Positions 2,430 through 59,448 of a stretch of 64,000 nt of DNA are shown here, one piece after another; position 1 is the first letter of the stretch, and each line of letters begins with the position of its first letter. The position numbers and the translations under genes are program-made. The notes under the pieces were generated by a model. That model searched no databases. It was given only the letters and a program-made list of their open reading frames with translations, and was not told the origin of the DNA. The DNA is from an uncultured PS1 clade bacterium (lineage in GTDB: Bacteria > Pseudomonadota > Alphaproteobacteria > MED-G09). Where the stretch lies: assembly GCA_902626605.1 (NCBI GenBank), contig CACOFZ010000002.1:89586-153585 (forward strand). The letters are read 5' to 3'.

Positions 2430-2483
2430 TTTAATTAAAAAAATATGGTCTAAGTTAATTTTTAAAATTTTTTTAATTCGTTG

Positions 2484-2841: not shown

Positions 2842-2845
2842 TTTT

Positions 2846-2872
2846 TTTATAAAAAAAATGAGTTTTGGTCAA
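2846..2872 (-). promoter_or_regulatory. Sigma70-type promoter for rnpB (-35 TTGACC, about 16-nt spacer, -10 TATAAA, TSS about 7 nt downstream at the predicted RNA 5' G)
   Basis: Minus-strand TTGACCaaaactcattttttTTATAAAaaaaaGUGUC read directly. Spacing is consistent with the predicted mature 5' end. Confidence 0.5.
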
Positions 2873-2884
2873 TATTTTATGAAT

Positions 2885-3493: not shown

Positions 3494-3592
3494 TTCTAAC
3501 CTCCCTTCTAAAACAATTAAAAAATTTGATGACATTCTATTTGTATTAGTTAATTTAATCATTAATTTATAATAATGCTAGGGAGAACAAAA

Positions 3593-4501
3593 ATGACAAT
3601 TGATTTTAAAGATAAAGTTGCAATCGTTACGGGAGCAGGTGGTGGATTGGGTAGGTCTCATGCTTTAGAATTGTCAAAAAGAGGTGCTAAGGTCGTTGTG
3701 AATGATCTTGGAGGATCTGTTGATGGTTCTGGAGGATCATCTGATGCAGCCGAAAAAGTTGTAAAAGAAATTATTAGTTCCGGTGGTCAAGCTATATCTA
3801 ATGGTTCATCGGTTACAGACGACAACGGTGTAAAACTAATGATTGATCAAACAATCGATGAGTATGGAAGAATTGATATACTGTTAAATAATGCTGGAAT
3901 ATTAATTGATAAGTCATTTTCTAAAATGGAAATTAATGATTTTGAAAAAGTTTTAAATGTTCACCTTATGGGAACTGTTAAACCAACAAAAGCTGTTTGG
4001 GAAATAATGAAAGAACAAAACTATGGAAGAATATTAGTTACTTCCTCATCATCTGGTTTATATGGAAACTTCGGACAAACTAATTATGGGGCAGCGAAAT
4101 TAGGTCTGGTAGGTTTTATGAATACCCTTAAGCTCGAAGGTCAAAAATATAACGTCCATGTTAATGCCCTAACTCCAGTGGCTTATACAAGGATGACTGC
4201 AAATTTAATGCCGCCTGAAGCTGAAAATTTATTAACACCTGAAAGCGTTACTCCTGCAGCAATTTATTTAGTTTCGGATGATGCTCCCAATGGAACTATT
4301 TTATGTGCTGGTGCCGGAGTCTATTCTGTTTCAAAAATTATGGAATCTGACGGATTAAGTCTTGGGCTTAATGCCACCGCTGAAGATATTGTTAATAACT
4401 GGGAAAAAATATCTAATTTTAATGAAGCAAAGTCATATAATATGGGCGGAGAGCAGACAGGTAAGGTTTTTGAAAAAGCCATGGAGACAATTGAAAAATA
4501 A
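3593..4501 (+). CDS. Short-chain dehydrogenase/reductase resembling the (3R)-hydroxyacyl-CoA dehydrogenase domain of multifunctional enzyme type 2
   Basis: VAIVTGAGGGLGRSHALELSKRGAKVVVNDLGG matches the MFE-2 N-terminal pattern. Catalytic YGAAK present. Start placed at ATG 3593 after AGGGAGA. Confidence 0.75.
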   Translation: MTIDFKDKVAIVTGAGGGLGRSHALELSKRGAKVVVNDLGGSVDGSGGSSDAAEKVVKEIISSGGQAISNGSSVTDDNGVKLMIDQTIDEYGRIDILLNNAGILIDKSFSKMEINDFEKVLNVHLMGTVKPTKAVWEIMKEQNYGRILVTSSSSGLYGNFGQTNYGAAKLGLVGFMNTLKLEGQKYNVHVNALTPVAYTRMTANLMPPEAENLLTPESVTPAAIYLVSDDAPNGTILCAGAGVYSVSKIMESDGLSLGLNATAEDIVNNWEKISNFNEAKSYNMGGEQTGKVFEKAMETIEK

Positions 4502-4517
4502 TTGATGAAATTTTTTA

Positions 4518-6002
4518 ATGAGTGACATTTCTTTTAATATAAAAAACTATATTGAAGAACCAATTATTAACGAATTTGGTTTTAGAGAATATGATGCCCG
4601 ATGGATTTATCCAAAACAAATTAATTTGAGCGGTATAAAAAAACTTGGTTATGGTCTTGGACAATTAATGATAGAAAAAAATGTCAAAAAAGAGATTGTT
4701 ATAGGCCATGATTATAGATCCTATTCTGAGGAAGTTAAAAACGCTCTTGTATCTGGTTTATTATCATACGGTATAAATGTTTTTGATATTGGATTAACTA
4801 TATCACCTGGCGCTTATTTTGCTCAATACGATTTAGATTGTAAATCTGTTGCAATGGTTACAGCTAGTCATAATGAAAATGGATGGACCGGCTTTAAAAT
4901 GGGAGTCAATAGACCTTTAACATTTGGGCCAGACTTAATGAAAAGACTTAAAGAAATATGTCTTAATGACTTAAGTCCAAAAAAAATTAATGGTAAATAT
5001 ACTTATATTGAAGGAATGAATACCAAATATATTGAGGACCTAACTAAAAGAAATAATATTAAACGTAAACTTAAAGCTGTTGTGGCTTGTGGAAACGGAA
5101 CCTCAGGTATTTTTTCTCCAGAAATATTAGAAAAAATTGGTATTGAAGTTATTAGGGTTCATTGTGACCTTGATCATACTTTTCCTAATTACAATCCTAA
5201 TCCAGAAGATCTAAAAATGCTTAAACATGTAAGCGAAGAAGTTATAGCAAATAATGCAGATATTGGTTTTGCCTTTGATGGGGATGGAGATAGGTGTGGT
5301 TATGTTGATAATAATGGTAAAGAAATTTTTTCTGATATTATGGGCTTACTTTTAGCTAGAAACTTTTCTAATAAATATAAATTTTCAAAATTTGTTGTTG
5401 ATGTTAAATCAACAGGATTATTTAATTCAGATAAAATTTTAAAAACTAATAACGCAATTGTCCAATATTGGAAAACTGGTCATAGCTATATTAAACAAAA
5501 AACCTCAGAAATATCAGCTTTAGCTGGTTTTGAAAGATCAGGTCATTATTTTTTTAATCAGCCTATTGGAAGGGGTTATGACGATGCATGTTTATCGGCA
5601 ATTGAAGTATGTAAACTTTTGGATGAAAATAAAGAAAGTAATATTGCAGATATGATTAATGACCTGCCTCATACATTCAATTCTCCAACAATGTCTTTAG
5701 AATGTGCAGATAATGTAAAATATCAAACTATCGACAAAATTTCAGATATTATTAAAAATAAATTCAAGAATAAAAGTAAAATTGCAGATCAAGAAATTCT
5801 GTCTATCTTAACAATAAATGGAATAAGATTCACTCTTGAGGATGGAAGCTGGGGTTTAATTAGAGCTTCATCAAATAAACCAAATCTTGTTGTGGTTTGT
5901 GAGAGCACCTCTTCTGAATATGTTATGAAAGAAATCTTTAAGTTTATTGATAGTTTATTAAAAAAATTTAAAGAAATTGGCTCTTATGATCAATCTATCT
6001 AA
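4518..6002 (+). CDS. Phosphomannomutase/phosphoglucomutase (alpha-D-phosphohexomutase family)
   Basis: Active-site phosphoserine loop TASHNENGW and metal-binding loop FAFDGDGDRCG. 494 aa. Confidence 0.85.
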   Translation: MSDISFNIKNYIEEPIINEFGFREYDARWIYPKQINLSGIKKLGYGLGQLMIEKNVKKEIVIGHDYRSYSEEVKNALVSGLLSYGINVFDIGLTISPGAYFAQYDLDCKSVAMVTASHNENGWTGFKMGVNRPLTFGPDLMKRLKEICLNDLSPKKINGKYTYIEGMNTKYIEDLTKRNNIKRKLKAVVACGNGTSGIFSPEILEKIGIEVIRVHCDLDHTFPNYNPNPEDLKMLKHVSEEVIANNADIGFAFDGDGDRCGYVDNNGKEIFSDIMGLLLARNFSNKYKFSKFVVDVKSTGLFNSDKILKTNNAIVQYWKTGHSYIKQKTSEISALAGFERSGHYFFNQPIGRGYDDACLSAIEVCKLLDENKESNIADMINDLPHTFNSPTMSLECADNVKYQTIDKISDIIKNKFKNKSKIADQEILSILTINGIRFTLEDGSWGLIRASSNKPNLVVVCESTSSEYVMKEIFKFIDSLLKKFKEIGSYDQSI

Positions 6003-8024: not shown

Positions 8025-11000
8025 ATGAGGATCTATATGATTTACACAAAAAAACTAATGAAAATTTTAGCTTTTGCTTTTTTTACAATTTTTATAACGT
8101 CTATTTCTACTTCTGATATATCAGCTGAACAAACTACTGGGGTTATCAGAGGATCAGTGGTCGATGAGGCAGGTAATCCTATAACTGGAGCTTCTGTACA
8201 AATTCTTCATTCCCCATCTGGAAGTAAATCATCTACATCAACAGGTAATTCAGGGGCTTTCTACTCAAGAGGTTTAAGATTGGGAGGTCCATTCAAAATA
8301 ACTGTTACAAAGTCAGGGCAAATGTCTACAAAAAGTAATATTTATACAAGACTAGGAAGTGAAGCAAACCTATCATTTACTCTTGGGTCAGCTGGGGTCG
8401 AAGAAATTGTTGTCACAGCACAAGCTGTTGATTTTAAAGGTCTAGGAGTTGGTCCTGGTTCAACTTTTGATGCAGAAGATATTTCAACATTACCTTCAAT
8501 TGATCGTGATATCAAAGATATTGCTAAACTTGACCCCTTTGTGACCGTTAACAACAATGATCAACTCTCTTTTGCAGGAGGAATGCCAAGACTAATTGGT
8601 TTTATAATTGATGGTGTAAGCGCAAATGACTCTTATGGACTAAGTTCAAATGCCTATCCAACAAATAGAATGCCTCTGTCAATGGATGTCATAGATCAAG
8701 TTTCAGTTAAAATAGCAAATTTTGACGCTGAACTTGGTGAAGCATCAAGTGGTAATATCGTTCTTACAACAAAAGCAGGTACTAATGAGTTTCATGGATC
8801 ATTTACAATTGAGTCCTCTCAAACTAGCGGAAATGAGCCTTTTGGTAAAAAAGCAGATAACGCTGATCCTGATACAGAATTATTCTCAGTTGCTCTTCAA
8901 GGTCCAATTATAAAAGATAAACTTTTCTTCTCTTTTGGTTATGAAAAATATGAAGCTTCTGACCCAATTCAAATGCAGGCTTTTCAATCGGGATCAGTGA
9001 GTAAAGAGGAAGCTGACGCCGTTATTATGGCTGCTAAAGATATTATTGGCTATGATGCAGGATCGTATAATAAAGGTTTAGAAGAAGAAGATGAAAAAAC
9101 TTTTTTAAGATTTGATGCAAATATTACAGATAATCAGGCGTTAACATTAGAATATATTCATGTAGATGGATTTACAGAAAGTGCTTATTGGAATAGATCT
9201 TTTGGTCTTCCACTTTCAAGTAGTTGGTACAGAATTAATAAAGAGTACGAAACAATTAAATTTGAATTAAACTCAGATTGGTCGGATAACTTTTCAACCA
9301 AAATTATGTATTCTGACACAGATGTCATGAATCCGAATACCCCTGTTGGATCAACTTCAATTGGAGAAGTTGGTGTTGGTGTTACCTCAGGGGGAACTGT
9401 ATTTTTTGGACCTGATCAATATAGACATGCTAATGAAATTCAAACCAGTAGAAAACAATTTGAATTATCTGGATATTACGATGTAGGCAATCATGCGATT
9501 ACATTGGGTTATAAATCTATTGAAAATGACATGTTTAACATGTTTTCAAGGAATAGCTTAGGGGAATATGATTATAATTCTCTGGAAGATTTTATTTCTG
9601 GTAATTTAAGAGAACTTGATTATAGAAATGCTGATACAAATAATCCTAGAGATGCTGCCGGTCGTTTTAATATGGATTATACAATTATTTACTTACAAGA
9701 CACCTGGAGCATTAACTCTGATTTAACAGCAAGGATTGGTTTCCGTTATGAAGAAATAAGTCAAGATACAACACCTGAATATAATTCATTCTGGTTTAAC
9801 TGGACTGGAGATGAGTTTAGACCAGCACCTAGAAATGACGTAAACCTTGATGGTGAAGATATATTGATGCCTCGTTTTTCTTTAGATTGGCAAGCTAAAG
9901 ATAATATTCTTGTTACCTTTGGATATGGTGAATTCAGTGGAAATCTACCTCCTGTATGGTTTGGTGGGCCATATATTGATACAGGTTTAGGTCTTCCAGG
10001 TAATAAACTTAGAGCAAGGAGTAATAACTTACCTACCCCAGGAACTCCTGCAAGTTATCCTGGTGAAGCTGCCTTAGCTCTTGTTCAAAATCAAATTGGT
10101 GATACTGGTGGGTATACAGCTATGATGGATAAAGATTTTGGTATTCCCTCAATAACAAAAATGAGCCTGGGAATTGTTGCAGATTTAGATTCAGGTATCA
10201 CAATCAGAGCTAACTATATTTATATGGAAGAAGAAGATCCTGTTGGAGCATATATAGGTGGTTGTGATCCAAAAGGAAATGCAATAGCCGATAGCAGACC
10301 ATTATATGGTGGATGTAGCTATGTTGGATATTTAACAACCTTTAAAAATATCCAACCTGAAACAAATATATTTGGTATCTCTATGGAAAAATCTTTTGAT
10401 AATGGGTTAAACTTATATCTTGGCTATGCTCATACTGACAGAGAAATGGCTCACATGATGACAAGCTCTATTATTTTTTCAAGTGCTGTAAGAATGCCAA
10501 TTTTTGATCACCTAACGCCTGTAAATAGCCCTTCTCATTACGAGATTGAACACTCTTTTGATTATGCGCTTACATGGAAGGGAAATATTTTTGGGAACCT
10601 TGAAACTAGCATAGGCTTAAATGGATTTAGACAGTCTGGCAACCCCTTTAGTTATACATTCAGAGGGGATTTAAGTGGATATAGGACAGATGGAGAAAAT
10701 ATTGAATTACTCTATGTTCCATCTATTGATGACCCAAATGTACTTTACGCCGATGGATTTGATTTAGCTGCTTTTGAACAATTCCTTCAGGACTCTGGTT
10801 TATCAGCATATCGAGGTTCTGCAGTTCCTAGAAATAGCTTTAATAGCCCTTGGGCAGGAACTTTTGATTTAAGAATTGCACAGGAAATTCCTTCTGGTGG
10901 AGTTCCTGGAAAAGCGATTTTCTTTATCGATATAGAAAATGTTCTTAATCTTTTAAATTCTGATTGGGGAGGATTTGAAAATTATAGTGGCTCTACAACC

Positions 11001-11141
11001 AATTCTAGAGGAATTGTTGAGGCAGATGTGGATGAACAAGGTAGATATATATACAAAACATTTAAAGTTGATGGCCAACCTACTCAGAACATAGGTAAAT
11101 CAGTTTATCAAATTAAAGTTGGTCTCAAATATCAATTCTAA
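8025..11141 (+). CDS. TonB-dependent outer-membrane receptor with N-terminal carboxypeptidase-regulatory-like domain
   Basis: 1038 aa. Signal peptide (MKILAFAFFTIFITSISTSDISA). CarbopepD_reg-like segment (GVIRGSVVDEAGNPITGASVQIL). TonB box EEIVVTA. Long beta-barrel ending in the aromatic terminal residue (...KYQF). Alternative starts at 8037 or 8058. Confidence 0.85.
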   Translation: MRIYMIYTKKLMKILAFAFFTIFITSISTSDISAEQTTGVIRGSVVDEAGNPITGASVQILHSPSGSKSSTSTGNSGAFYSRGLRLGGPFKITVTKSGQMSTKSNIYTRLGSEANLSFTLGSAGVEEIVVTAQAVDFKGLGVGPGSTFDAEDISTLPSIDRDIKDIAKLDPFVTVNNNDQLSFAGGMPRLIGFIIDGVSANDSYGLSSNAYPTNRMPLSMDVIDQVSVKIANFDAELGEASSGNIVLTTKAGTNEFHGSFTIESSQTSGNEPFGKKADNADPDTELFSVALQGPIIKDKLFFSFGYEKYEASDPIQMQAFQSGSVSKEEADAVIMAAKDIIGYDAGSYNKGLEEEDEKTFLRFDANITDNQALTLEYIHVDGFTESAYWNRSFGLPLSSSWYRINKEYETIKFELNSDWSDNFSTKIMYSDTDVMNPNTPVGSTSIGEVGVGVTSGGTVFFGPDQYRHANEIQTSRKQFELSGYYDVGNHAITLGYKSIENDMFNMFSRNSLGEYDYNSLEDFISGNLRELDYRNADTNNPRDAAGRFNMDYTIIYLQDTWSINSDLTARIGFRYEEISQDTTPEYNSFWFNWTGDEFRPAPRNDVNLDGEDILMPRFSLDWQAKDNILVTFGYGEFSGNLPPVWFGGPYIDTGLGLPGNKLRARSNNLPTPGTPASYPGEAALALVQNQIGDTGGYTAMMDKDFGIPSITKMSLGIVADLDSGITIRANYIYMEEEDPVGAYIGGCDPKGNAIADSRPLYGGCSYVGYLTTFKNIQPETNIFGISMEKSFDNGLNLYLGYAHTDREMAHMMTSSIIFSSAVRMPIFDHLTPVNSPSHYEIEHSFDYALTWKGNIFGNLETSIGLNGFRQSGNPFSYTFRGDLSGYRTDGENIELLYVPSIDDPNVLYADGFDLAAFEQFLQDSGLSAYRGSAVPRNSFNSPWAGTFDLRIAQEIPSGGVPGKAIFFIDIENVLNLLNSDWGGFENYSGSTTNSRGIVEADVDEQGRYIYKTFKVDGQPTQNIGKSVYQIKVGLKYQF

Positions 11142-11157
11142 AATGATAAATAATCAG

Positions 11158-11188
11158 AAAAGGGCGCTATCTACTAGCGCCCTTTTTT
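11158..11188 (+). terminator. Rho-independent terminator (GC-rich 9-10 bp stem AAAGGGCGC...GCGCCCTTT followed by a T-tract)
   Basis: Read directly: gaaaagggcgctatctactagcgcccttttttca, 17 nt after the TBDR stop. The only strong GC hairpin plus U-tract in the window. Confidence 0.8.
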
Positions 11189-11201
11189 CATATAATAAAT
11201 T

Positions 11202-12275
11202 ATGGCTCAAATTAACTTAAAAAAAATAAATCGTAGAAAGTTTCTTTACGGTGGGGGTGTAATTCTTCTTTCATTTTTTCCCCTATTTAAAAGATTAAAA
11301 GCATCATCAAAAAATATTTTTAAAATTTCATGTGGATCATGTCTTTCACAAGAGAAGGATCAGCCAATCTGGAAGAGTATTCTAAGAGAAAAATCGGATG
11401 TGTTTATTTTTATGGGAGATAATGTTTATGGCGATAATAAAAATAATAGTGATTTAAATCTTTTAAAAAAGGCTTATAAAAAACAAAAAATAAAAATTCC
11501 TTTTAAAAGATTAAAAGAAACTAATGAAATTTTCTCGATTTGGGATGATCATGACTATGGAAAAAATGACGGTGGCAAAGAGTTTGAAAATAAAAAAGAA
11601 GCAAAAAAGCTTTTTTTAAAATTTTGGGAAATACCACCTGATGATAAAAGAAGAAATAGAGAAGGTTTATATTTTAGCAAAAAAAGAAATACTGAAATTG
11701 GGATAATTCAATTTATTTTCCTTGATACAAGATATTTTAGATCCGCTCTTAAGCTAACTGATAAAAAATGGGCACCAAAAAAAGAAAAGTACATAGCTGA
11801 TTATGATTCAAAAAAAACATATCTTGGATATAAACAGTGGAATTGGCTTAAAAAAGCTTTTAAAGAAAAATCAGATATCAAAATTCTAATATCAAGTATT
11901 CAGGTATTAGCTGAAGGACATGGTTTTGAAAAATGGGGAAATTTTCCATTAGAAAAAAGACGTCTTTATAATTTAATAGATGAAAATGATATTAATAAAC
12001 TTATTATTCTATCAGGAGACAGGCATAGAGCAGGTATATATAAGGATAGGACTAAAAATGGTAATGAATTATATGAACTTACATCTAGCTCTCTTAATCT
12101 AGCGGCTGGAAAATTATTTAAAGCAGTTGAAGAAGCTGGTCCAAATAGAATTGGACCAACTTATTTAATGGAAAATTATGGAACTCTTGAAATTAATAAT
12201 GATAAAAATATTAAATTATCCATAAAAGATTTAAATCAACAAACCCAGAATGAAATTAAAATAGACTTATCTTGA
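11202..12275 (+). CDS. PhoD-family (alkaline phosphatase D-like) metallophosphatase, Tat-secreted, catalytic domain only
   Basis: Twin-arginine signal NRRKFLYGGGV. Metallophosphatase motifs GDNVYGD, WDDHDYG and GDRHRAG match the PhoD pattern GDxIYxD / WDDHE / GDxH. 357 aa, shorter than canonical PhoD. Confidence 0.7.
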   Translation: MAQINLKKINRRKFLYGGGVILLSFFPLFKRLKASSKNIFKISCGSCLSQEKDQPIWKSILREKSDVFIFMGDNVYGDNKNNSDLNLLKKAYKKQKIKIPFKRLKETNEIFSIWDDHDYGKNDGGKEFENKKEAKKLFLKFWEIPPDDKRRNREGLYFSKKRNTEIGIIQFIFLDTRYFRSALKLTDKKWAPKKEKYIADYDSKKTYLGYKQWNWLKKAFKEKSDIKILISSIQVLAEGHGFEKWGNFPLEKRRLYNLIDENDINKLIILSGDRHRAGIYKDRTKNGNELYELTSSSLNLAAGKLFKAVEEAGPNRIGPTYLMENYGTLEINNDKNIKLSIKDLNQQTQNEIKIDLS

Positions 12276-18974: not shown

Positions 18975-19580
18975 CTAATCTAACCCCAACATCTTGTTAA
19001 TGGGTGAAAATGACTTTCTGTGATATTTACATGGTCCATAAATTTGAAGAGCATTACGATGCTCTTTAGTTCCATAACCTTTATTCTTCTTCCAATTATA
19101 ATTTGGAAATTCCTTATCAATTTTTGACATCAAATTATCTCTAGTAACTTTTGCAATAATTGATGCTGCCGCTATGGAAAGAGAAATACTATCACCCTTA
19201 ACTATACATTCTGTATGATGATCAAAGCCTGGATTTGAATTGCCATCAACTAAAACAATATCTACCGAACAATCTAAATTATTTAATGCCCTTTTCATAG
19301 AAAGGAATGTCGCTTGTAAAATATTCAAACTATCAATTTCCTCAATGCTTGAAATACCCACCCCTACAAAATGAGAATCATAAATTGACGAATAAAGTGA
19401 TTTTTTTCTTTTCTCAGAAACTTTTTTTGAATCATCTAGATCACTTGGAATATTCTTTTTATCTAAAACTACAGCTGCTGAAACAACTGGACCAGCCCAA
19501 GGACCTCTCCCAGCCTCATCTACTCCTACAATAGATTTGTATGGCCAACCAAAATCTTTCTCAATTGAGAGATTTGGCAC
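18975..19580 (-). CDS. rnhB: Ribonuclease HII
   Basis: GVDEAGRGPWAGPVVSAAVVL catalytic motif; 200-211 aa. Track ORF begins at GTG 19610 inside gcvPB. An in-frame GTG at 19580-19578 overlaps the gcvPB TAG stop by 1 nt (TAGTG) and leaves a typical 19 residues before GVDEAGRG. Confidence 0.85.
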   Translation of the reverse strand: MPNLSIEKDFGWPYKSIVGVDEAGRGPWAGPVVSAAVVLDKKNIPSDLDDSKKVSEKRKKSLYSSIYDSHFVGVGISSIEEIDSLNILQATFLSMKRALNNLDCSVDIVLVDGNSNPGFDHHTECIVKGDSISLSIAAASIIAKVTRDNLMSKIDKEFPNYNWKKNKGYGTKEHRNALQIYGPCKYHRKSFSPINKMLGLD

Positions 19581-21070
19581 TAAATTGCTATAAGCGGCTC
19601 TTCTTTCCACCTTAAAACCGGCTTTCTTGCAGCCTGTGTCTCGTCTAATCTTCTTATTGGAGTAAATACAGGCGCCGCTTTAAATGAGTCAGAGTCTTTT
19701 TTTAATCTCTCAACCAAATCACACAATGTTTTAATAAAATGATCTAATGATTGTTTGGATTCAGTTTCTGTTGGTTCAACCAATAGGGCTCCATGAATAA
19801 CCAAAGGAAAATATATTGTCATAGGATGATAACCTTCATCAATCATAGCTTTTGCAAAGTCTAGCGTTTCTACCCCTGTATCTTTGAGAAAATCGTCACT
19901 GAACAATATTTCATGCATACAAAATCCATCAAATGCGGGTGTTAAATGTGAGCTAAGAGAAGCTCTTAAATAATTCGCGTTTAAAACAGCATCCTCAGAA
20001 ACTTGTCTTAATCCATCAGCGCCATGACTTAGCATATAAGACATTGCTCTTACAAACATACCCATTTGGCCATGAAATACATTTAATCTTCCAAAAGACT
20101 TTTTAAGATCTTTTTCGTTTGAGTCTTCTACTAAAATAAAATCACCTTTTATATTTTTAACTAATGGGGTTGGACAAAATTTTTCTAACCTATTAGAAAA
20201 AACTACAGGACCAGAGCCTGGTCCTCCACCCCCATGAGGTGTTGAAAAAGTTTTATGCAGATTGATATGCATTGCATCAATTCCAAGGTCACCTGGTTTT
20301 AATTTGCCAACAACAGCATTAAAATTTGCTCCATCACAGTATAAATAACCACCTGATTTATGTGTTAATTCTGAAATTTTAACAATGTCAGTTTCGAATA
20401 ATCCACAGGTATTTGGATTGGTAATCATTACGCCAGCAAAATTTTCATCAATATTATTCTTAAAATCACTAAAATCTATAAGGCCCTTTTCATTTGATTT
20501 TATTGTCTTAACTTCAAATCCTAAAAAGGCAGCGGTAGCAGGATTAGTTCCATGCGCCGAGTCAGGAACCAAAACAACTTTTCTATTTAGCTCATTTCTA
20601 TCTAATAAAGCTTGCTTGATAGCCATCATCCCACATAATTCTCCTTGAGCGCCAGCTTTAGGTGTCATCGTTACAGCAGTCATTCCTGTTAGCTCCTTCA
20701 ACCATGATGAAATTAAATTAATTAATTCTAAAGCGCCTTGGCATGTAGATATTGGTTGCAATGGATGAATTTCAGAAAAACCTTCAAGTCTAGCCATCTT
20801 TTCATTAAGCCTAGGGTTATGCTTCATTGTACATGAGCCTAAAGGATACAAGCCTGCATCAATCGAATAGTTTTTTCTTGAAAGCCTAACATAATGCCTA
20901 ATAGTTTCTGGCTCACTTAAACCTACCAAACCTATCTCATTATCAGAAAAACTATCACCAATCATATGACTTAAATTATCTAGTTCAGCTAAATCAACAC
21001 CTGTTTTATCTATGTTTCCAACCTCAAAAAGAAGTTGCTCATCATGATCAAGACCTTTATTTTTATTCAT
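19580..21070 (-). CDS. gcvPB: Glycine dehydrogenase (decarboxylating) subunit 2 (P-protein C-terminal half)
   Basis: 496 aa with the PLP-lysine region (NLHKTFSTPHGGGGPG). Follows gcvPA with an ATGAATAA overlap. Confidence 0.92.
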   Translation of the reverse strand: MNKNKGLDHDEQLLFEVGNIDKTGVDLAELDNLSHMIGDSFSDNEIGLVGLSEPETIRHYVRLSRKNYSIDAGLYPLGSCTMKHNPRLNEKMARLEGFSEIHPLQPISTCQGALELINLISSWLKELTGMTAVTMTPKAGAQGELCGMMAIKQALLDRNELNRKVVLVPDSAHGTNPATAAFLGFEVKTIKSNEKGLIDFSDFKNNIDENFAGVMITNPNTCGLFETDIVKISELTHKSGGYLYCDGANFNAVVGKLKPGDLGIDAMHINLHKTFSTPHGGGGPGSGPVVFSNRLEKFCPTPLVKNIKGDFILVEDSNEKDLKKSFGRLNVFHGQMGMFVRAMSYMLSHGADGLRQVSEDAVLNANYLRASLSSHLTPAFDGFCMHEILFSDDFLKDTGVETLDFAKAMIDEGYHPMTIYFPLVIHGALLVEPTETESKQSLDHFIKTLCDLVERLKKDSDSFKAAPVFTPIRRLDETQAARKPVLRWKEEPLIAI

Positions 21071-22427
21071 AACAAACCTCCTTAGCTAATTTAATAAAAT
21101 CATCTCTATCAAAATCTGAGTTAATTTCTGAAGAAGCAACAAGTAATAGATTTGAAAAATCGCCCTCTTGGTTTGATAGCCTAGATACAGGAACTCCCGC
21201 TAAAATTCCTTTTTCAGCCATTTTTTCAACAAAGACTGATGCATCAATAGGAAGCTTAACGGTAAACTCATTAAAGAAAGAATTATTTTTGACTTCAAAA
21301 CCATCTAAAGTTTTTAATTTATTGTAGAGTTTAATAGCTGCTTCGTGGTTTAATTTAGATAACTTCTTAAAGCCCATTTCTCCTAACAAACTTAAATGGA
21401 TTGTAAAAGCTAAGCTACATAAACCAGAATTAGTACAAATGTTTGATGTAGCTTTTTCTCTTCGAATATGTTGTTCCCTTGTAGCTAGAGTTAAAACAAA
21501 ACCTTTTTCTCCATTCATATCTTTTGTTTCGCCAACTATTCTTCCTGGAAGCTGTCTAACATATTTGTCTTTGGTCGACATTAAGCCAATATATGGACCA
21601 CCAAAATTGAGTGGATTTCCTAGAGATTGACCCTCGCATGCAACAATATCAGCACCCATCTCTCCAGGGCTTTTCATCATTCCAAGCGATATAATTTCAT
21701 TAACAACCACAATTAAAAGAGCTCCCTTAGAGTGAGTATACTCTGCTAATTGCTCTAGAGAATGACAAGAACCAAAGAAATCAGGATTTTGAACAACTAC
21801 ACAGGAAACACTATCGTCAATTTTAGAAATTAATTTTTCAACTTCAAAATTTTCTGAAAACTCATAATCAATCTCATCTTCATTAGAGCTAATTAATGTA
21901 TTAATTACTTCTGCATATTGAGGATGTAGTGTTGGAGATATAACTACCTTATTTCTTTTAGTAATTCTTTTTGCCATTGATACTGCTTCTGCTGTTGAAG
22001 TAGATCCGTCATACATAGATGCATTAGAAACATCCATTCCTGTAATAAGAGAGACCTGGGTTTGAAATTCAAAGAGATATTGAAGAGTGCCTTGAGAGAT
22101 CTCAGGTTGATAAGGGGTATAAGATGTCAGGAATTCAGAACGCTGAATTATATGATCAACAGTAGCGGGAATATGATGCTTATAAGCTCCTGCTCCTAAA
22201 AAAAATGGTACTTCATTGGAGTTAATATTTTTATTGGCAATCTCAGATAAAATTTTTCCTACTTCCATTTCAGTTTTATGGCTTGGTAAATTAAATTTTG
22301 GATCCAATGAAACTTCTTTTGGAACATTGGTAAACATTTCATTAATGTCACTTATACCAATGACCTTTTTCATATTCTCTCTGTCATTATTTGTTAAGGG
22401 TAAATATCTCATTTCTTTATACTCCAA
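21063..22427 (-). CDS. gcvPA: Glycine dehydrogenase (decarboxylating) subunit 1 (P-protein N-terminal half)
   Basis: 454 aa with typical GcvPA start MRYLPLT(N)NDRENM and conserved core. Overlaps gcvH by 11 nt. Confidence 0.92.
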   Translation of the reverse strand: MEYKEMRYLPLTNNDRENMKKVIGISDINEMFTNVPKEVSLDPKFNLPSHKTEMEVGKILSEIANKNINSNEVPFFLGAGAYKHHIPATVDHIIQRSEFLTSYTPYQPEISQGTLQYLFEFQTQVSLITGMDVSNASMYDGSTSTAEAVSMAKRITKRNKVVISPTLHPQYAEVINTLISSNEDEIDYEFSENFEVEKLISKIDDSVSCVVVQNPDFFGSCHSLEQLAEYTHSKGALLIVVVNEIISLGMMKSPGEMGADIVACEGQSLGNPLNFGGPYIGLMSTKDKYVRQLPGRIVGETKDMNGEKGFVLTLATREQHIRREKATSNICTNSGLCSLAFTIHLSLLGEMGFKKLSKLNHEAAIKLYNKLKTLDGFEVKNNSFFNEFTVKLPIDASVFVEKMAEKGILAGVPVSRLSNQEGDFSNLLLVASSEINSDFDRDDFIKLAKEVCYE

Positions 22428-22788: not shown

Positions 22789-23919
22789 TCACTTTTTCCT
22801 TTTAAAATAATTATGAGGAACAAAAGGCAGCTTTATAATATCTGCTGGTATTTTTTTTCCACGAATATTTAAAAAAACTTCTTTTTCATTTCTAAAAGAA
22901 GAAGTTATATAACCCATAGATATTGGTACTCCTAAAGAAGGAGAAAAACCTCCACTTGTTACCTCACCAATTAACTTATTACTAGCATCGTATATTAGAG
23001 TACCCTCTCTAGCAGGAGCCCTTCCTTTAGGAAGAAAACCTAATAAATTTTTTTTAGGTCCTTCTATATATTCATTTGCAATAGCTTCGCCGCCAATAAA
23101 ATCTTGCTTATCAACTCTATCCTTACATATCGACCATTTTAGGCCAGCCTCGATAGGATTTTTTTCTATATTTATATCGTGTCCATATAAACAAAGACCC
23201 GCTTCCAATCTGAGCGAATCTCTTGCTCCAAGCCCTGCTAATTTAACATCGTTATTTTTTAAAAGCTCTTCAGTAAATGTAACAACGTGCTTATTAGGTA
23301 TAGAGATTTCAAAACCATCCTCTCCAGTATAACCGCATCTTGATATTAAGATTTCATAATTTTTATACCTAAACCAAATACTAGACATAAATTCCATCCC
23401 TTTAATTTTAGGAATTAAATCTACTAATATTTTTTCTGATTTTGGACCTTGTAAAGCTATTAATGAAAGATCATTTCTAACGTTAATATTAAATTTTTTG
23501 TTTAAATTATCTCTTAGATGATTAATATCTTTTTGTTTACAAGCAGCATTCACAACAAGCCAAACGCTATTTTCATCTCTAGTTTTATGAACCATTAAAT
23601 CATCTATTATTTTTCCTTCATGGTTTAAAAATTGAGTATATTTTATTTTTCCTGGAGCTAGCTTAGAAAAAGATATCGGAAGAATTTTTTCAAGCGCTTC
23701 CATAACAAAAGGACCATTTATTTCAATTTGCCCCATATGAGAAACATCAAATATGCTTGCTTTTGATCTAGTATGATTATGCTCAGCAATAATTCCTGAA
23801 GAATAATTTATAGGAAGATAGTAACCTCCGAATGGAACTATTTTAGCATTATTTTTGTTATGAAAATCAAAAAGAGAGGTTTTCTCAATAGAAATATTTT
23901 CATTTATTAATTCAGACAT
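22789..23919 (-). CDS. gcvT: Aminomethyltransferase (glycine cleavage system T protein)
   Basis: 376 aa GcvT fold (SLFDVSHMGQIEI, ISRCGYTGEDGFEISI). Immediately downstream of the glycine riboswitch. Confidence 0.92.
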   Translation of the reverse strand: MSELINENISIEKTSLFDFHNKNNAKIVPFGGYYLPINYSSGIIAEHNHTRSKASIFDVSHMGQIEINGPFVMEALEKILPISFSKLAPGKIKYTQFLNHEGKIIDDLMVHKTRDENSVWLVVNAACKQKDINHLRDNLNKKFNINVRNDLSLIALQGPKSEKILVDLIPKIKGMEFMSSIWFRYKNYEILISRCGYTGEDGFEISIPNKHVVTFTEELLKNNDVKLAGLGARDSLRLEAGLCLYGHDINIEKNPIEAGLKWSICKDRVDKQDFIGGEAIANEYIEGPKKNLLGFLPKGRAPAREGTLIYDASNKLIGEVTSGGFSPSLGVPISMGYITSSFRNEKEVFLNIRGKKIPADIIKLPFVPHNYFKRKK

Positions 23920-23939: not shown

Positions 23940-24126
23940 AAGGCTTTTAAGCCTGCCCTCCTCTGTCGTTGGAACCTGAGAGATTTCGTATAATTAAATA
24001 CTTACCCCGTGGGTGAAATCAGATGATTTTCTTTCCAGAGTTAAATATTTCTGCGGTCCTTTTGCCTGAGAGTTTCCGAGGGCGGTTGCTCCTTCGGCGC
24101 TAAACTAAGTCTCTCCCGCAGAGACA
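23940..24126 (-). promoter_or_regulatory. Tandem glycine riboswitch (two aptamers plus expression-platform hairpin) in the gcvT leader
   Basis: Minus strand read directly. Aptamer 1: CUCUGCGGGAGAGAC...GCGCCGAAGGAGCAACCGCCC...ACUCUCAGGCAAAAGGACCGCAGA. Aptamer 2: CUCUGGAAAG...CACCCACGGGGUAAG...UCUCUCAGGUUCCAACGACAGAGGAGGG. Both fit the glycine aptamer consensus (CUCUGGAGAG / ACCGAAGGGGCAA / CUCUCAGGCAAAAGGACAG). The hairpin AGGCUUAAAAGCCU plus U-rich tail precedes the SD AAGGAG and the ATG at 23919. Confidence 0.9.
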
Positions 24127-24167
24127 TTTTTATATTATATTGATTCTTTACAATGTCATTTTTTATA

Positions 24168-52820: not shown

Positions 52821-53665
52821 TTGAAGTAAATCCTCTAGAATTTTCATTTGAAAAAATTGTAAAAGATGCGCTTTATGAAGATTTAGGTCACCAAGGTGAT
52901 ATAACTAGTAATTCAGTAATAGATAAAAATTTACAAAATAGCTTTGTTTTAAAATCTAGATCGGATGGAGTAATTTCTGGGATACAAGTTGCCGAGTTAT
53001 CATTTAAAATATTAGATAGTAGTTTAAATTTTAAGAAAAAATTAAATGATGGCTCAATTGTAAAAAAAGAAGATATTATTGCCACAATAGATGGTTATGC
53101 ATCTTCAATACTCAGCGCCGAAAGAACGGCCTTAAATTTTTTAAGTCATTTATCAGGAATAGCATCAGCAACCAACGAAATGGTAAATTTAATATCTGAA
53201 ACAAATACAAAAATTGTTTCAACCCGAAAAACTACACCTAATCTTAGAATATTAGAAAAATATGCTGTTAAAGACGGAGGCGGTATGAACCATCGCTTTG
53301 GTTTATATGACGGTATATTAATAAAAGATAATCATCTTGCACTTTCAGGATCTATAACCAATTCTGTTTCTTTAGCGAGGGAAAAATGTGGCCATATGGT
53401 TAATATAGAAGTTGAAGTTGATAATTTGGATCAATATAGAGAGGCATTAGAAACACAAACAAACGCAATTCTTCTTGATAATTTTAAAATAGACGATTTA
53501 GTAAAAGCAGTTAATCTAAATAAAAAAAATATAATATTGGAAGCGTCAGGAAAAATTACAAAAGATAATATTCTCGAAATAGCAAAAACAGGTGTAAATT
53601 TAATTTCTTCTGGTTGGCTTACTCATTCATCGCCATCACTTGATATAGGCTTAGATTTCTCTTGA
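52817..53665 (+). CDS. nadC: Nicotinate-nucleotide pyrophosphorylase (carboxylating)
   Basis: 282 aa QPRTase fold ([13 protein letters not shown]). 4-nt overlap with nadA. Confidence 0.88.
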
Positions 53666-53675
53666 GGTATTTATT

Positions 53676-54458
53676 ATGAAAAATTTAAAATCTATTTTTA
53701 TTACCGGTGCCGCTGGAGGGATGGGACGTTCAACAGCGAAACTTTTTCTGGAAAAAAATTGGTTTGTCGGCTGTTATGATAATAACAAAGAAAATCTTTT
53801 AGAACTAGAAAGTCAACTTGGAAACGAAAATATAATATACGATGTATTAGACGTTACAAATAAAGAGAATTTTCAGGACTGCGTTAATAATTTTTCCTTA
53901 AGATCTGAAGAAAAACTAGACATACTTTTTAATAATGCAGGAATTACTGAGGGAGGTTTTTTTGATGAAATACCTTATCAGAGGCATATGGATATTATTA
54001 ATATAAATATTGTCGGGGTAATAAATGGAATATATTCTGCAGTAAATTTATTAAAAAATACAGCCAATTCTATAAGTATAACAACATCTTCTAGTTCAGG
54101 AATAATGGGAATGGAGATGATAGCCTCATATTCTGCTTCAAAGCATGCTGTAAAAGGCTTAACTGAGTCACTTTCATCGGAGTTTAAAAGATTCAACTCA
54201 AGAGCTGCTGATATACTTCCTGGTGTTATTGATACACCAATGATTAGAGACGAAATAAGAAAAAATTTGCCAAAAGATGGTATTTGGAGATTGATTTCAT
54301 CAGAAGAAATAGCAAAAACTGTTTGGAATGCTTATCAATCAGATAAGATTCATTGGTACGTTCCTGAAGAATTGGAGGAGCTTGAAAAAGAGGTAGCTGC
54401 AAATCCTCAAAAAGCAAGAGAGCTTTTAAAAACATCAGGCCCTTTAAGTAATGATTAA
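53676..54458 (+). CDS. Short-chain dehydrogenase/reductase
   Basis: 260 aa with TGAAGGMG Rossmann motif and YSASK catalytic pair. Confidence 0.75.
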   Translation: MKNLKSIFITGAAGGMGRSTAKLFLEKNWFVGCYDNNKENLLELESQLGNENIIYDVLDVTNKENFQDCVNNFSLRSEEKLDILFNNAGITEGGFFDEIPYQRHMDIININIVGVINGIYSAVNLLKNTANSISITTSSSSGIMGMEMIASYSASKHAVKGLTESLSSEFKRFNSRAADILPGVIDTPMIRDEIRKNLPKDGIWRLISSEEIAKTVWNAYQSDKIHWYVPEELEELEKEVAANPQKARELLKTSGPLSND

Positions 54459-54463
54459 TTATT

Positions 54464-56152
54464 TTATTGATTTATAATTTTCTTTGTTTCTTTTAGAAAA
54501 CTCAAAACATTATTGATTTCGTTTTTATTAATTTCTTTGCACCAATTTATAATTTCACTCAATGATACAGGTAAATTAGGAATAATTGTTGGAGTTTCAC
54601 CAATATATACTTCGCCATTTTCACCATTAATAGTAATTATCTCTTCCTCAGTAATAAACTTACCCCCGCAGTGAAATCTTTTATTATCTATATCAATTTT
54701 TATATCTCTTGCTCCTGTAACGCATGTTTTACCTAAACCTCTTGAAACAACTGCTGCGTGACTTGTCATACCGCCTTGGGTAGTTAAAATTCCTGATGAT
54801 GCATGCATCGCTTTTATATCATTTGCATTTGTTTCTTTTAAAACTAAAATTGTTTTTTGTTTTTTATTTTTAAATTTAGTTAAACTTTCAAAATCAAATA
54901 CAACGACTCCTGAAACTACCCCTAAAGAAGCTGGAAGCCCCTTAGTTAATATTTCATTTTTATTTTTTGGATCAATTATGGGTGATAATAACTTTTCAAT
55001 TTTTTCAATATCTAGAGATAAAATAGCCTCTTTTTTTGTAATTAATTTCTCTTTAACCATGTCGCAATAGATTACTAATGAAGCTTCAATATTTGACTCT
55101 GCTTTTCTTGATTGCAAAATCCATAATTTTTTAGACTCTATTGTGAATTCAATATCTTGGATACATGAAAAATAATTTTCTAATTTTTTAGAAAATTTTT
55201 CTAACGCCTTATAACAATCAGGAAATTTTTCTTCTAAAGATAATATTGTTGATGGTGATTCGCTTTTATCGACATTACTAATAGCCCAAGGGGTTTTAAA
55301 ACCAGAAACTATATCCTCACCTTGAGATCTAATAATATACTCGCCTTTTAATCTTTTTTTTCCATCTTGGGGGTTTCTAGAAAAAACTACTCCGGTTGCG
55401 CTCTCATCATCTAAATTTCCAAAGACCATTCTTTGAATATTTACTGCCGTACCAAAATCATCAGGAATTTCATTAATTCTTCTATAGTCAATTGCTCTCT
55501 CATTAAACCAAGACTCCATTACCGCATTGATGCTTAAGACAAGCTGTTCATTCACATCCTCTGGAAAGGGTCTTCCAATTCTTTCTTCAATTAAAATTAA
55601 ATATTGATTACATATTTCTTCAATATCATTGACTTCTAAATCTTTTTCAAACTGAAGACCAGCTCCTAAAAGATAGCTATCTAAAATTTCATCAAAATAA
55701 AAGTGTTCAATTTTATATACTACGTGAGAAAACATATGCAAAAAACGCCGCCATGTATCCCAAGCAAATAATCCTTTGTTTTGTTTTTCATAAAATTTAA
55801 GAACTTTCTTATTAAATCCAATATTTAGGATGGTATCAAGCATACCTGGCATTGATTTTTGCGATCCAGATCTCACTGAAACTAGCAAAGGGTTTATAGA
55901 AGAACCAAACTTGCAATTTGACATTTTTTCTAATTTTGAAATATTTTCTGCTAACTCATTTTTAAATTCAATTGGAAAGGATTTATTTTTCTGAAAATAA
56001 TGGTTGAGTGTTGTTAAAATTGTAAAACCTTGGGGTACAGGTAATCCTAGATCTGTCATCAAATTCAAACCAACACCTTTATTGCCTAATAATTCAGCTG
56101 GGTTTTTTAATTCATTAATATTTTTGTTAAAACTGTAAATCCATTTTTCCAT
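54464..56152 (-). CDS. Pyruvate,phosphate dikinase-like protein containing only the ATP-grasp (PPDK_N) and phosphohistidine swivel domains
   Basis: 562 aa. N-terminus MEKWIYSF...LLGNKGVGLNLMTDLGLPVPQGFTILT is collinear with the PPDK N-terminus. Central GGMTSHAAVVSRGLGKTCVTG contains the phospho-His. The protein ends about 90 aa later; the PEP/pyruvate TIM-barrel domain is absent, and the convergent neighbour begins 5 bp away. Confidence 0.7.
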   Translation of the reverse strand: MEKWIYSFNKNINELKNPAELLGNKGVGLNLMTDLGLPVPQGFTILTTLNHYFQKNKSFPIEFKNELAENISKLEKMSNCKFGSSINPLLVSVRSGSQKSMPGMLDTILNIGFNKKVLKFYEKQNKGLFAWDTWRRFLHMFSHVVYKIEHFYFDEILDSYLLGAGLQFEKDLEVNDIEEICNQYLILIEERIGRPFPEDVNEQLVLSINAVMESWFNERAIDYRRINEIPDDFGTAVNIQRMVFGNLDDESATGVVFSRNPQDGKKRLKGEYIIRSQGEDIVSGFKTPWAISNVDKSESPSTILSLEEKFPDCYKALEKFSKKLENYFSCIQDIEFTIESKKLWILQSRKAESNIEASLVIYCDMVKEKLITKKEAILSLDIEKIEKLLSPIIDPKNKNEILTKGLPASLGVVSGVVVFDFESLTKFKNKKQKTILVLKETNANDIKAMHASSGILTTQGGMTSHAAVVSRGLGKTCVTGARDIKIDIDNKRFHCGGKFITEEEIITINGENGEVYIGETPTIIPNLPVSLSEIINWCKEINKNEINNVLSFLKETKKIINQ

Positions 56153-56165
56153 TTATGTGGTATAC

Positions 56166-57524
56166 CTATAAAAGATTTTTTTGAAAATAATTAGGGGCTT
56201 CATCACAACTTATTCTTACTTGTTCCATTGTATCCCTATCTCTTACAGTAATTGTATCGTCGTCTAAACTTTGAAAATCAACTGTAATGCACATTGGAGT
56301 ACCTACCTCATCGTGTCTTCTATAACTTTTACCAATATTACCAGAGTTATCTAATAACACTCGTCCTAGTTTCAAGCTTTGAAGCATTCTTTTGATATCT
56401 AAAGCTTTTTCTACAATTTCATCATTATTTCTTTTTAGAGGTATTACTGCTGCCTTAATCGGAGAAAGATGAGGTTTAAGTGCAAGAACTGTTCTTTCCC
56501 TTCCATCATCAAATTTTTCAATTCTATAAGACTCGTTCAAAATTGCCAAAACACCTCTATCCACTCCTGCTGAAGGCTCAATAACAAAAGGAATAACCCA
56601 ATCATTAGTTTTTTTATTTTGAATTGCTAATTTAGTAACTGAATCTTCATTTTTAATTACCTTTGAATCAATTTGAAAATCTTTTTGATGTCTAGTATGT
56701 GAACCAATATCAAAATCAGTTCTATTGGCAATACCCTCAAGCTCTTCAACACCGTGAGGAAATTTATACATAATATCTATAGTTTTCTTTGAGTAATGTG
56801 AAAGATCTTTTTTAGGAACATCAATTATCTGAATATTTTCCTTACTTATTCCTTGATTTTCCCACCACTCAATTCTTTTTTCTACCCATTTTTCATGCCA
56901 ATCCTCGTCTGTACCTGGTTCGACAAAAAATTCTAATTCCATTTGCTCGAACTCTCTAACTCTAAAAATAAAATTTCTAGGGGTAATTTCATTACGAAAT
57001 GCTTTACCAATTTGAGCTATCCCGAAAGGTAAAACCCTTGAGGTTGAGTCAATAACATTCTTAAAATTAGTAAAAATTTGTTGAGCAGTTTCGGGCCTTA
57101 AATAAGCAAAATTTGATCCATCATCAACAGGGCCCACATTAGTTTTAAACATAAGATTAAATGGTCTTGGCTCAGTAAGATTTTCTGAACCACATGATGG
57201 ACAAAGATTATCCTTAATATGATCAGCTCTCCATCTTGATTTGCAATCTTTACAATCTACAAGAGGATCAGTAAATGTTTCTTCGTGACCGGAATATTTA
57301 AGAACATGTGGATGAGTTAAAATAGAAGAATCTAGACCCTCAACGTCATCTCTCTCATACACCATAGAACTCCACCAAGAACTCTTTAGGTTATTCTTAA
57401 GCTCTACACCAAGCGGTCCATAATCATATAAACCTTGAAGACCACCATAGATTTCATTTGTCTGATATATGAAGCCTCTTCTTTTACATAAAGAGACCAA
57501 CTCATCCATATTTTCAGCAACCAT
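56166..57524 (-). CDS. glyQS: Glycine--tRNA ligase, dimeric (alpha2) type
   Basis: 452 aa class II aaRS with the typical GlyRS2 N-terminus ([14 protein letters not shown]) and anticodon-binding C-terminus. Confidence 0.88.
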
Positions 57525-57596
57525 GGCTAACCTCCATAAAAAGAACTTAACGTATTGTTTTATACTAATCTAATTTTAATAAATAGCACTAAAGAC

Positions 57597-58346
57597 CTAA
57601 TGATTGAAGCCAATTCCATTTCTTAGTAAGTTGTCTATATTTTTTGGAATTTTACCATCCTTATTTGTTAGGATTAAACCTTGATTGTATGATAGAGGTT
57701 TTTTTGAATCTCTAACCCCACTTATAATGAATCTAGATGCTTTTTCATCTTTTTTTGGAAAAATTGGAGTTACTTTTATATCTCCTAGTTTTTTCGAAAA
57801 CAGAAATATCATTTCTGGAAGATTTTGAATATGATTTATAAAGGTTATTGTTCCTCCTGATTTAGAAAAAGTAAGAGCTTTTTTTAACCATAAATCAAAA
57901 GTTCTTTTATTACCTATATTTGCAATTTTTTTATTTTTATTAGATGGTTCAGAGAGATTTTCTTTAATAAAATATGGAGGATTTGCATAAATTTGATCAA
58001 ATGATTGGCGTTTTATAAATTGGTAATTCTCAATTTTTCCTTCAATGTCACCAGCAAAAACTTTAATATTTTTTTTAAAATTATTTAATTCAATATTTTT
58101 TTTTGAAATTTTTAGCATTTCGATGTCATTTTCTATTCCAACAATATCTAAGTTAGGAATTCTTTTTGCTAAGCAAAGAGAGACTACACCTGTACCAAAA
58201 CCTAGTTCCAGGCATGAGTCCCCCTCAAATGCCTTAATTGCAGAAGCCAATAATACAGAGTCATGTCCTGCTCTAAAGCCTTCCTTCAACTGGTATATTT
58301 TTAATTTACCCCCTAAAAAATTATCTAATGTTTCAATTTTACTCAT
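57597..58346 (-). CDS. Class I SAM-dependent methyltransferase, TrmN6/YfiC-like (tRNA1Val adenine37-N6 methyltransferase family)
   Basis: 249 aa with LELGFGTGVVSL (SAM motif I) and NPPY (IYANPPYF). Confidence 0.65.
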   Translation of the reverse strand: MSKIETLDNFLGGKLKIYQLKEGFRAGHDSVLLASAIKAFEGDSCLELGFGTGVVSLCLAKRIPNLDIVGIENDIEMLKISKKNIELNNFKKNIKVFAGDIEGKIENYQFIKRQSFDQIYANPPYFIKENLSEPSNKNKKIANIGNKRTFDLWLKKALTFSKSGGTITFINHIQNLPEMIFLFSKKLGDIKVTPIFPKKDEKASRFIISGVRDSKKPLSYNQGLILTNKDGKIPKNIDNLLRNGIGFNH

Positions 58347-58410
58347 AAATATTAATAATAAATTATCTTAATTTTCATTTTTATTTGTTTAAAGACTACC
58401 CATATAATCT

Positions 58411-59448
58411 ATGCTACATAAATATCAAAATATGTTTAAGGTAAGCATTATGGTAAAAATAAGTAAAGAAGATCTATCACTTCATAATCTCAAAAAATTA
58501 ATTAAAAAAGAATTTAATGAGACAGATAAGTTAATAAAAAATCAAATTAATAGTGATGTTAATAGAATACCAAAATTATCAAAACATATAATTGACCTTG
58601 GGGGTAAAAGACTAAGACCCATGTTAACAATCTCATGTGCAAAAATGCTTAAAATTAGAAATAAAAACCATATAAAGCTAGCTGCTGCAGTTGAATTATT
58701 ACATACCGCAACCCTTCTACATGATGATGTTGTAGATGAAAGTATTTACAGAAGAGGAGAAAAAACATCGCATACATTATGGGATAACAAATCAAGTATT
58801 TTGGTTGGTGATTTTTTGCTAGGTAAGGCCTTCCAACTTATGGTTAAAACTAATTCTATTGAATGTTTAAATATACTATCAAAAGCTGCAGCAATAATTG
58901 CTGAAGGCGAAGTTTTGCAATTAGTTGAAACTAATAATGTAAGTATTAAGGAGATTAATTATATAAAAATAATAGAGTCTAAAACCGCAGCTCTTTTCTC
59001 AAGTGCTTGTGAAGTTGGAGGCATTGTATCAGGAGCAAATAAATCTCAAAGAAAGAATCTTTTTAATTTTGGTAAAAATCTTGGTACAGCGTTTCAGTTA
59101 AAAGATGATGCCCTCGACTATGATGGCTCTTCAAATAAAATGGGTAAAAATAATGGTGATGATTTTTATGATGGAAAAGTAACTCTTCCAATTATTTTGG
59201 CCATGAAAAATGCTAGTAAAAAAGAAAAGGATTTTTTGAAAAAAACATTCAATAAAAAAGTAAGAAATAAAACTGATCTTGAAATTGCAAAAAAAATAAT
59301 AAGAGATAAGGATACAATAAATCAAACGTTAAAATTAGCAAATAGATATGGTGAGAAGGCTAAGTACATTATGAGAGATTTTGAGAATAACCCTATAAGA
59401 AATGCTTTAATAGATTTGGTAGATTTTTCTCTAATTAGAAATCATTAA
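58411..59448 (+). CDS. ispB: Octaprenyl/all-trans-polyprenyl diphosphate synthase
   Basis: 345 aa with DDVVDES and LKDDALD Asp-rich motifs and a long-chain-type chain-length region. Start uncertain (ATG 58411, 58432 or 58450). Confidence 0.85.
   Translation: MLHKYQNMFKVSIMVKISKEDLSLHNLKKLIKKEFNETDKLIKNQINSDVNRIPKLSKHIIDLGGKRLRPMLTISCAKMLKIRNKNHIKLAAAVELLHTATLLHDDVVDESIYRRGEKTSHTLWDNKSSILVGDFLLGKAFQLMVKTNSIECLNILSKAAAIIAEGEVLQLVETNNVSIKEINYIKIIESKTAALFSSACEVGGIVSGANKSQRKNLFNFGKNLGTAFQLKDDALDYDGSSNKMGKNNGDDFYDGKVTLPIILAMKNASKKEKDFLKKTFNKKVRNKTDLEIAKKIIRDKDTINQTLKLANRYGEKAKYIMRDFENNPIRNALIDLVDFSLIRNH

Follow-up and report, generated by a model that had tools for sequence, protein, structure and literature searches.

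Canonical pyruvate, phosphate dikinase (PPDK; EC 2.7.9.1) carries its third active site, that for phosphoenolpyruvate (PEP) and pyruvate, in a TIM barrel of ~340 residues, and a PPDK gene that ends before this barrel raises the question of what its product can still do. Such a gene lies in a stretch of 64,000 nucleotides from an uncultured PS1 clade bacterium (contig CACOFZ010000002.1, positions 89,586 to 153,585; hereafter the window), which has ~30% G+C and tightly packed genes. We consider this short PPDK to be probably a functional two-domain remnant that would autophosphorylate His465 with ATP and act on or through a separate partner, not make PEP, a reading that draws on the sequence and on analogy with VadK, a truncated dikinase of Mycobacterium tuberculosis. 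The gene is an independently evolved member of this recently described VadK-like kind of truncated PPDK, an architecture that was itself already known. Its parts were delimited as follows.

54464..56152, minus strand: truncated ppdK, a complete gene encoding 562 residues, with an ATG start and one stop and with PPDK_N and PEP-utilizers only.
55103..56152, minus strand: nucleotide-binding (ATP-grasp) domain, residues 1-350, from invariant columns and the PPDK alignment; ratio of nonsynonymous to synonymous substitution rates (dN/dS) 0.047.
54953..55102, minus strand: first inter-domain linker, residues 351-400, from the PPDK alignment; model helices 355-388, dN/dS 0.026.
54608..54952, minus strand: swivelling phosphohistidine (PEP-utilizers mobile) domain, residues 401-515, with PF00391 at 432-513 and a match to the His domain of 2fm4; dN/dS 0.030.
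54467..54607, minus strand: second linker helix, residues 529-541, with invariant Trp537, and a clade-specific C-terminal tail of 25 residues, from alignment and model; dN/dS 0.36.
54740-54778, minus strand: His loop QGGMTSHAAVVSR, read directly from the translation, with the GGMTSH motif of PPDK.
54758-54760, minus strand: codon of the catalytic His465, with a regulatory-type Thr463 in the same loop.

Pfam placed PPDK_N (PF01326, E 2e-45) and PEP-utilizers (PF00391, E 9.5e-20) in the 562-residue protein and did not find PEP-utilizers_C (PF02896) there even at E<=1, which is the architecture that the original prediction had claimed. The PPDK equivalog model of NCBIfam, TIGR01828, was matched over profile positions 2-532 of 865 only, with 603.1 bits against a cutoff of 843.45, and in a comparison with solved structures residues 1-542 aligned with residues 1-532 of the 874 of Clostridium symbiosum PPDK (E ~1e-133). 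Both the predicted PPDK match from residue 1 through the His loop and the predicted lack of a PEP/pyruvate TIM barrel were thereby borne out. The protein ends 97 residues after His465, where the prediction had put its end roughly correctly at about 90, and 25 residues past the conserved linker Trp537.

The original prediction had named a C-terminal domain displaced by a frameshift, or a PEP-binding domain hidden within the protein, as the ways in which it could fail, and neither was found. The stop codon lies, as predicted, 5 bp from that of a convergent SDR gene, and all three frames downstream of the truncated ppdK read only as the reverse complement of this SDR gene, which fills the space where the C-terminal domain would stand. 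Searches by tblastn with the C-terminal domains of E. coli PpsA and of five PPDKs returned no match in the window (best E 0.47); as a positive control, the same queries matched the full-length ppdK loci of two relatives (L011 and L012) at E down to 0. The translated downstream frames and these searches together ruled out a frameshifted or hidden domain. In 14 short-form loci from at least six lineages, a search of the 5-10 kb around the gene likewise gave no PEP-utilizers_C. Neither the protein nor its gene neighbourhood holds the third active site and, with the PEP/pyruvate domain lost, the protein by itself is unable to make PEP.

Strong purifying selection acts on the gene. The best 120 homolog clusters encode proteins of 562-565 residues (one is a fragment) with 69-94% identity and the same two Pfam domains only, and come from single-cell genomes, several metagenome-assembled genomes (MAGs) and hundreds of ocean metagenome contigs, some of them of 1.44 Mb. 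The best match in a scan of a genome collection (three loci) was the single-cell genome AG-390-A19 of the OCS116 cluster, marine Alphaproteobacteria, with 87% identity. Against this 87%-identical ortholog dN/dS was ~0.05 for the whole gene, 0.047 for the ATP-grasp domain and 0.030 for the His domain, and 0.36 for the last 47 residues, where constraint is relaxed. An exhaustive search of representatives ranked a sister cluster (P0121; 555 residues, 50% identity, 323 members, on a 1.47-Mb contig) ahead of the nearest full-length PPDK, and this sister is short like the 562-residue clade.

Residues K25, R94, G103, R135/R136, T253, E279/D280, D333, E335, Q347, R349, T463 and H465 are invariant in a 19-member alignment of the family. 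Their equivalents by alignment in C. symbiosum PPDK are K22, R92, G101, R135, E279/D280, D321, E323, Q335, R337 and T453/H455, among which K22, R92, G101, R135, D321, E323, Q335 and R337 are established in the PPDK literature as residues of the ATP/inorganic phosphate (Pi) site. Of the positions with at least 80% conservation across 74 full-length PPDK representatives, the short clade has replaced only 12; they include K352/R353, R438 and D330, and none of them is a known catalytic residue. Segment 292-303, considered as a clade-specific 12-residue insertion relative to C. symbiosum PPDK, was rejected as such, being present in full-length alphaproteobacterial PPDKs too.

An AlphaFold2 model built from a 100-sequence alignment (pLDDT 91.7, pTM 0.84; an earlier model from a shallow 19-sequence alignment, with pLDDT 54.6, was discarded) had 1kbl as its best match in the PDB, with TMq 0.86 and an rmsd of 2.8 A over 547 columns. 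In the modelled conformer the His domain is docked on the ATP-grasp domain, as in 1kbl. The truncation point is exact, with both linkers retained as far as the conserved Trp537, and the tail, which keeps F552, T556 and I560, is predicted to form a helix (549-561) at the place where the TIM barrel would start with beta-strand 1. The short PPDK is thus like the canonical enzyme in its 41-47% identity over residues 1-542, in its fold, in the residues that catalyse partial reactions 1 and 2 and, as described next, in the genomic locus that it shares with SAR11-type ppdK.

The origin of the truncation can be read from the two genes that flank it.

56166..57524, minus strand: dimeric-type glycine--tRNA ligase (GlyRS), 452 residues (NF003211, 591 bits against a cutoff of 312; TIGR00389 glyS_dimeric).
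53676..54458, plus strand: convergent SDR-family oxidoreductase, 260 residues (NF006123, 277.8 bits).

The GlyRS gene lies upstream of the truncated ppdK, 13 bp from its start, and the two are probably co-transcribed; the convergent arrangement of ppdK and the SDR gene recurs in seven related loci (L001-L004 and L008-L010). Gene order in the window and in the short-form relatives, including the 555-residue sister, is ETF-QO, IspE, polyprenyl synthase (opposite strand), methyltransferase, GlyRS, short PPDK, convergent SDR, NadC and NadA. The two relatives with full-length PPDKs, one Ca. Fonsibacter-type (SAR11; 888 residues, 47% identical) and one alphaproteobacterial (891 residues), share the order polyprenyl synthase (opposite strand), methyltransferase, peptidase S49, glyQ, glyS, ppdK. 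Because the gene stands at the ancestral alphaproteobacterial ppdK locus, next to GlyRS, at which relatives keep the full-length enzyme, the TIM barrel was lost in situ and the gene is a truncated descendant of the ancestral ppdK; the term paralog, used in the original prediction, is not supported. From this comparison of sequences we infer that the streamlined marine alphaproteobacteria of OCS116 type had an ancestor in which the barrel was deleted.

The same comparison brought up a difference in the neighbouring gene: a single dimeric-type GlyRS of 452 residues stands here, whereas both full-length loci carry the two-subunit glyQ and glyS (L011 3003-5998; L012 2974-5995), and judging from these sequences the lineage that truncated ppdK seems also to have exchanged its GlyRS type in situ. 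A scan for promoters and terminators near the gene was uninformative, its counts not exceeding those of shuffled sequence and its terminators numbering zero, the 4.9 kb from 53600 to 58500 of the window holding 0 intrinsic-terminator-like sites against a shuffle mean of 2.1. Given this lack of terminators and gaps of 5 bp between the convergent stops and of 13 bp between the co-directional genes, the short ppdK and the SDR gene must each have transcripts that end inside the coding region of the other.

The closest functional precedent is Rv1127c of M. tuberculosis, long annotated as PPDK and characterised in 2025-26 as VadK, 'virulence-associated dikinase' (EMBO Rep 2026; PMC13400623). VadK autophosphorylates His422 with ATP/Mg2+, the H422A variant being inactive; it binds the methylcitrate synthase and dehydratase (PrpC/PrpD), restrains flux through the methylcitrate cycle, is needed for virulence and is essential in vivo, and the M. 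tuberculosis genome holds no PEP/pyruvate domain to complement it (PMC13400623). It was reported from actinobacteria and one Burkholderia, for which its authors suggested multiple origins or horizontal transfer (PMC13400623). Each protein pairs the ATP-grasp domain of PPDK with its central phosphohistidine domain and lacks the PEP/pyruvate domain, each is encoded by a conserved, functional gene, and each retains the catalytic His (His422 in VadK, His465 here) and the ATP-binding Arg (Arg106 and Arg94, respectively), the VadK residues being those given in PMC13400623, with no direct alignment to Rv1127c. They differ in host, which here is a free-living marine oligotroph and not an actinobacterial pathogen, and in the 25-residue C-terminal helix that the short PPDK has in addition. 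The nearest neighbours of the gene outside its own clade are full-length PPDKs, not other short forms, which together with the synteny argues for an origin independent of VadK. No prpC or prpD gene (citrate-synthase or PrpD family) was found in a Pfam/NCBIfam survey of the window, and we found no literature on a truncated PPDK from marine, SAR11 or OCS116 bacteria.

VadK acts on methylcitrate synthase, and for this reason we record a gene seen in one relative. Between its DAHP synthase and acyl-CoA dehydrogenase genes, the relative with 70% identity (L001/L002, 19062-21016) carries a CoA-transferase family III gene and a 254-residue citrate-synthase-like gene. Only in this relative (L001) does a citrate-synthase-like gene lie near the short PPDK, 8 kb away. 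The window and the L008 lineage are without both genes, and there is no evidence linking the citrate-synthase-like gene to the short PPDK.

The ATP-grasp and His domains bear the sites for partial reactions 1 and 2; judged by their sequences, both domains are intact and evolve under selection, and a catalytic course can be proposed from them. The enzyme would first be pyrophosphorylated (ATP + E-His465 -> AMP + E-His465~PP); the gamma-phosphate would then pass to Pi, releasing pyrophosphate (PPi) and leaving E-His465~P; and the phospho-His domain, carried on two flexible linkers, would finally, like VadK, act on a separate partner or through one. With ATP, AMP, Pi and PPi as substrates and products, the phosphorylation state could report cellular energy status. 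Related enzymes offer partial parallels. Rifampin phosphotransferase (5hv1), PEP synthase, phenylphosphate synthase and PigC/RedH use an ATP-grasp domain and a swivelling phospho-His domain to pass the beta-phosphate of ATP to an acceptor that is bound at another place, but these dikinases, at 12-15% identity, carry an acceptor-binding domain of their own, which the short PPDK does not. The N-terminal domain of PTS Enzyme I and EI-Ntr, to which the model gave weak structural matches (5t1o and 1zym), passes phosphate from a homologous phospho-His domain to a separate protein (HPr/NPr), but receives its phosphate from PEP, by way of its own TIM barrel, and not from ATP, and its helical HPr-binding subdomain is absent from the short PPDK. 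The earlier suggestions of a phosphotransfer module and of a regulatory protein are both compatible with these findings and with the VadK precedent (PMC13400623), and neither is singled out by them.

The main rival is a split PPDK, in which the TIM barrel would be encoded separately in the genome and the two polypeptides would associate to restore ordinary PPDK activity and gluconeogenic PEP synthesis. Multi-subunit dikinases exist, phenylphosphate synthase being one, and such an arrangement would agree with the retention of both linkers, Trp537 included, and of every residue that the first two partial reactions need, and with the fact that only 64 kb of the genome could be searched. We nevertheless hold it to be unlikely, given that no C-terminal domain stands in any frame of the window or within the 5-10 kb examined around the 14 short-form genes, with controls that matched, that a new conserved helical tail replaces the first strand of the barrel, and that the characterised M. 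tuberculosis enzyme works in a genome without such a domain (PMC13400623). Improbable to a greater degree is a remnant with no specific acceptor, whose E-His~P would be hydrolysed so that the enzyme serves as a pyrophosphohydrolase (ATP -> AMP + PPi) or PPi generator, or which would run a reverse, AMP/PPi-linked activity. Intact ATP and Pi/PPi sites and a neighbourhood analysis from which no partner emerged are in keeping with this, but a futile ATP cycle is hard to square with the selection on the His domain and linkers (dN/dS 0.03) in a streamlined genome of 1.4 Mb, and VadK acts via protein partners. The decayed gene that the original prediction had entertained, whether through a recent nonsense or frameshift mutation or as an assembly artefact, would account for the missing enzyme-defining domain and can be given next to no weight. 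The same length and end point recur in a single-cell genome, several MAGs and hundreds of metagenome contigs (more than 100 clusters), truncation and synteny are common to clades only 50% identical, dN/dS is ~0.05 with the catalytic residues invariant, and no remnant of the C-terminal domain follows in any frame; decay and artefact are refuted by this combination.

A two-domain phosphotransfer protein with a separate partner is therefore the reading that we prefer, and several observations weigh against it. Its function is inferred from the sequence and the VadK analogy, and its score with NF004531 (PRK05878, a short-PPDK model of 534 positions) is 407.7 bits against a cutoff of 456, the sister P0121 likewise falling below it with 419.6, so that transfer of VadK function is analogy and not orthology. 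Full-length PPDKs conserve a 'GKRT' Lys-Arg pair (352/353) and Arg438, all of which the short clade has lost. The gene context yields no candidate partner, the neighbourhood being inherited housekeeping synteny; the Pfam/NCBIfam survey of the whole window found no PEP-metabolising or PTS genes, and no homolog of the PPDK regulatory protein (PpsR/PDRP) was found in the window or in related loci. The inspected 64 kb belong to a genome of ~1.4 Mb, which leaves room for a PEP/pyruvate domain encoded in trans or for a second, full-length ppdK.

The VadK-type architecture is extended by this gene beyond pathogens to an abundant free-living marine lineage. Independent domain loss in situ, strong purifying selection in a 1.4-Mb genome and similar truncations elsewhere argue for a general role unrelated to virulence, and the gene offers a second, phylogenetically independent system in which to seek the phospho-acceptor. 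More tentatively, truncated PPDKs might be recurrently evolved, widespread phosphohistidine signalling modules driven by ATP, AMP, Pi and PPi and not confined to actinobacterial pathogens, the ancestral gluconeogenic ppdK of ocean oligotrophs (OCS116-type, ~1.4 Mb) having been converted in situ to an energy-state sensor that phosphorylates or binds a metabolic partner. If this were true, OCS116-type cells would make PEP by another route. A protein annotated as 'pyruvate, phosphate dikinase' that alone is unable to interconvert pyruvate and PEP also means that gluconeogenesis may be mis-inferred for OCS116-type genomes.

Loss of the barrel is not peculiar to this clade. The 150 best representatives include some 12 other complete short forms (523-566 residues), in which the His is retained and the chain stops 3-30 residues beyond the same linker Trp; they lie mid-contig in unrelated contexts, and their nearest neighbours are mostly full-length PPDKs. 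That independent short forms end at the same linker boundary indicates that domain loss there is recurrent. In the loci examined no PEP-utilizers_C gene adjoined these other short forms, and a conserved-neighbour search found no neighbour recurring across the independent ones. A neighbour-joining tree of 137 representatives was star-like and unbootstrapped and was used for clade membership only; independent origin is argued here from synteny.

A second short lineage (loci L013 and L017) comprises P0150 (549 residues) and P0177 (523 residues), 48% identical to each other, in the shared context mutY, dciA, dsbA-like, smc, short PPDK. A convergent metallo-beta-lactamase-fold gene comes next in L017 and, in L013, ~4 kb further on, after an aminotransferase. 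These sequences suggest another truncation in situ. A small metagenome contig (L018) carries two 532-residue short PPDK-like genes in tandem (1754-3352 and 3472-5070) beside an ECF sigma factor. In about 15 representatives of 700-1126 residues, PPDK_N and the His domain precede a C-terminal stretch of 200-590 residues that matches nothing in Pfam (P0131, P0213, P0257, P0160; P0159, P0199, P0255; P0212, P0218; P0263, P0268). Their tails fall into at least four unrelated families, one of which ends like a degenerate TIM barrel, and by their sequences these proteins may be PPDK-derived dikinases with new acceptor domains. A 'Rosetta-stone' search found no homolog of the tails in the window or in related loci, and hence no partner was inferred from them.

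Elsewhere the window contains the following features.

24044-24128, minus strand: glycine riboswitch (63 bits), upstream of gcvT and of a gcvP split into two subunits.
22789-23919, 21063-22427 and 19580-21070, minus strand: gcvT and the split gcvP genes, an ordinary glycine-cleavage operon.
2486-2837, minus strand: bacterial RNase P RNA class A, full length (318.6 bits).
8025-12275, plus strand: an outer-membrane beta-barrel protein of 1038 residues with a CarboxypepD_reg domain, followed by a PhoD-like phosphatase.

The beta-barrel protein and the PhoD-like phosphatase may form a phosphorus-scavenging pair.

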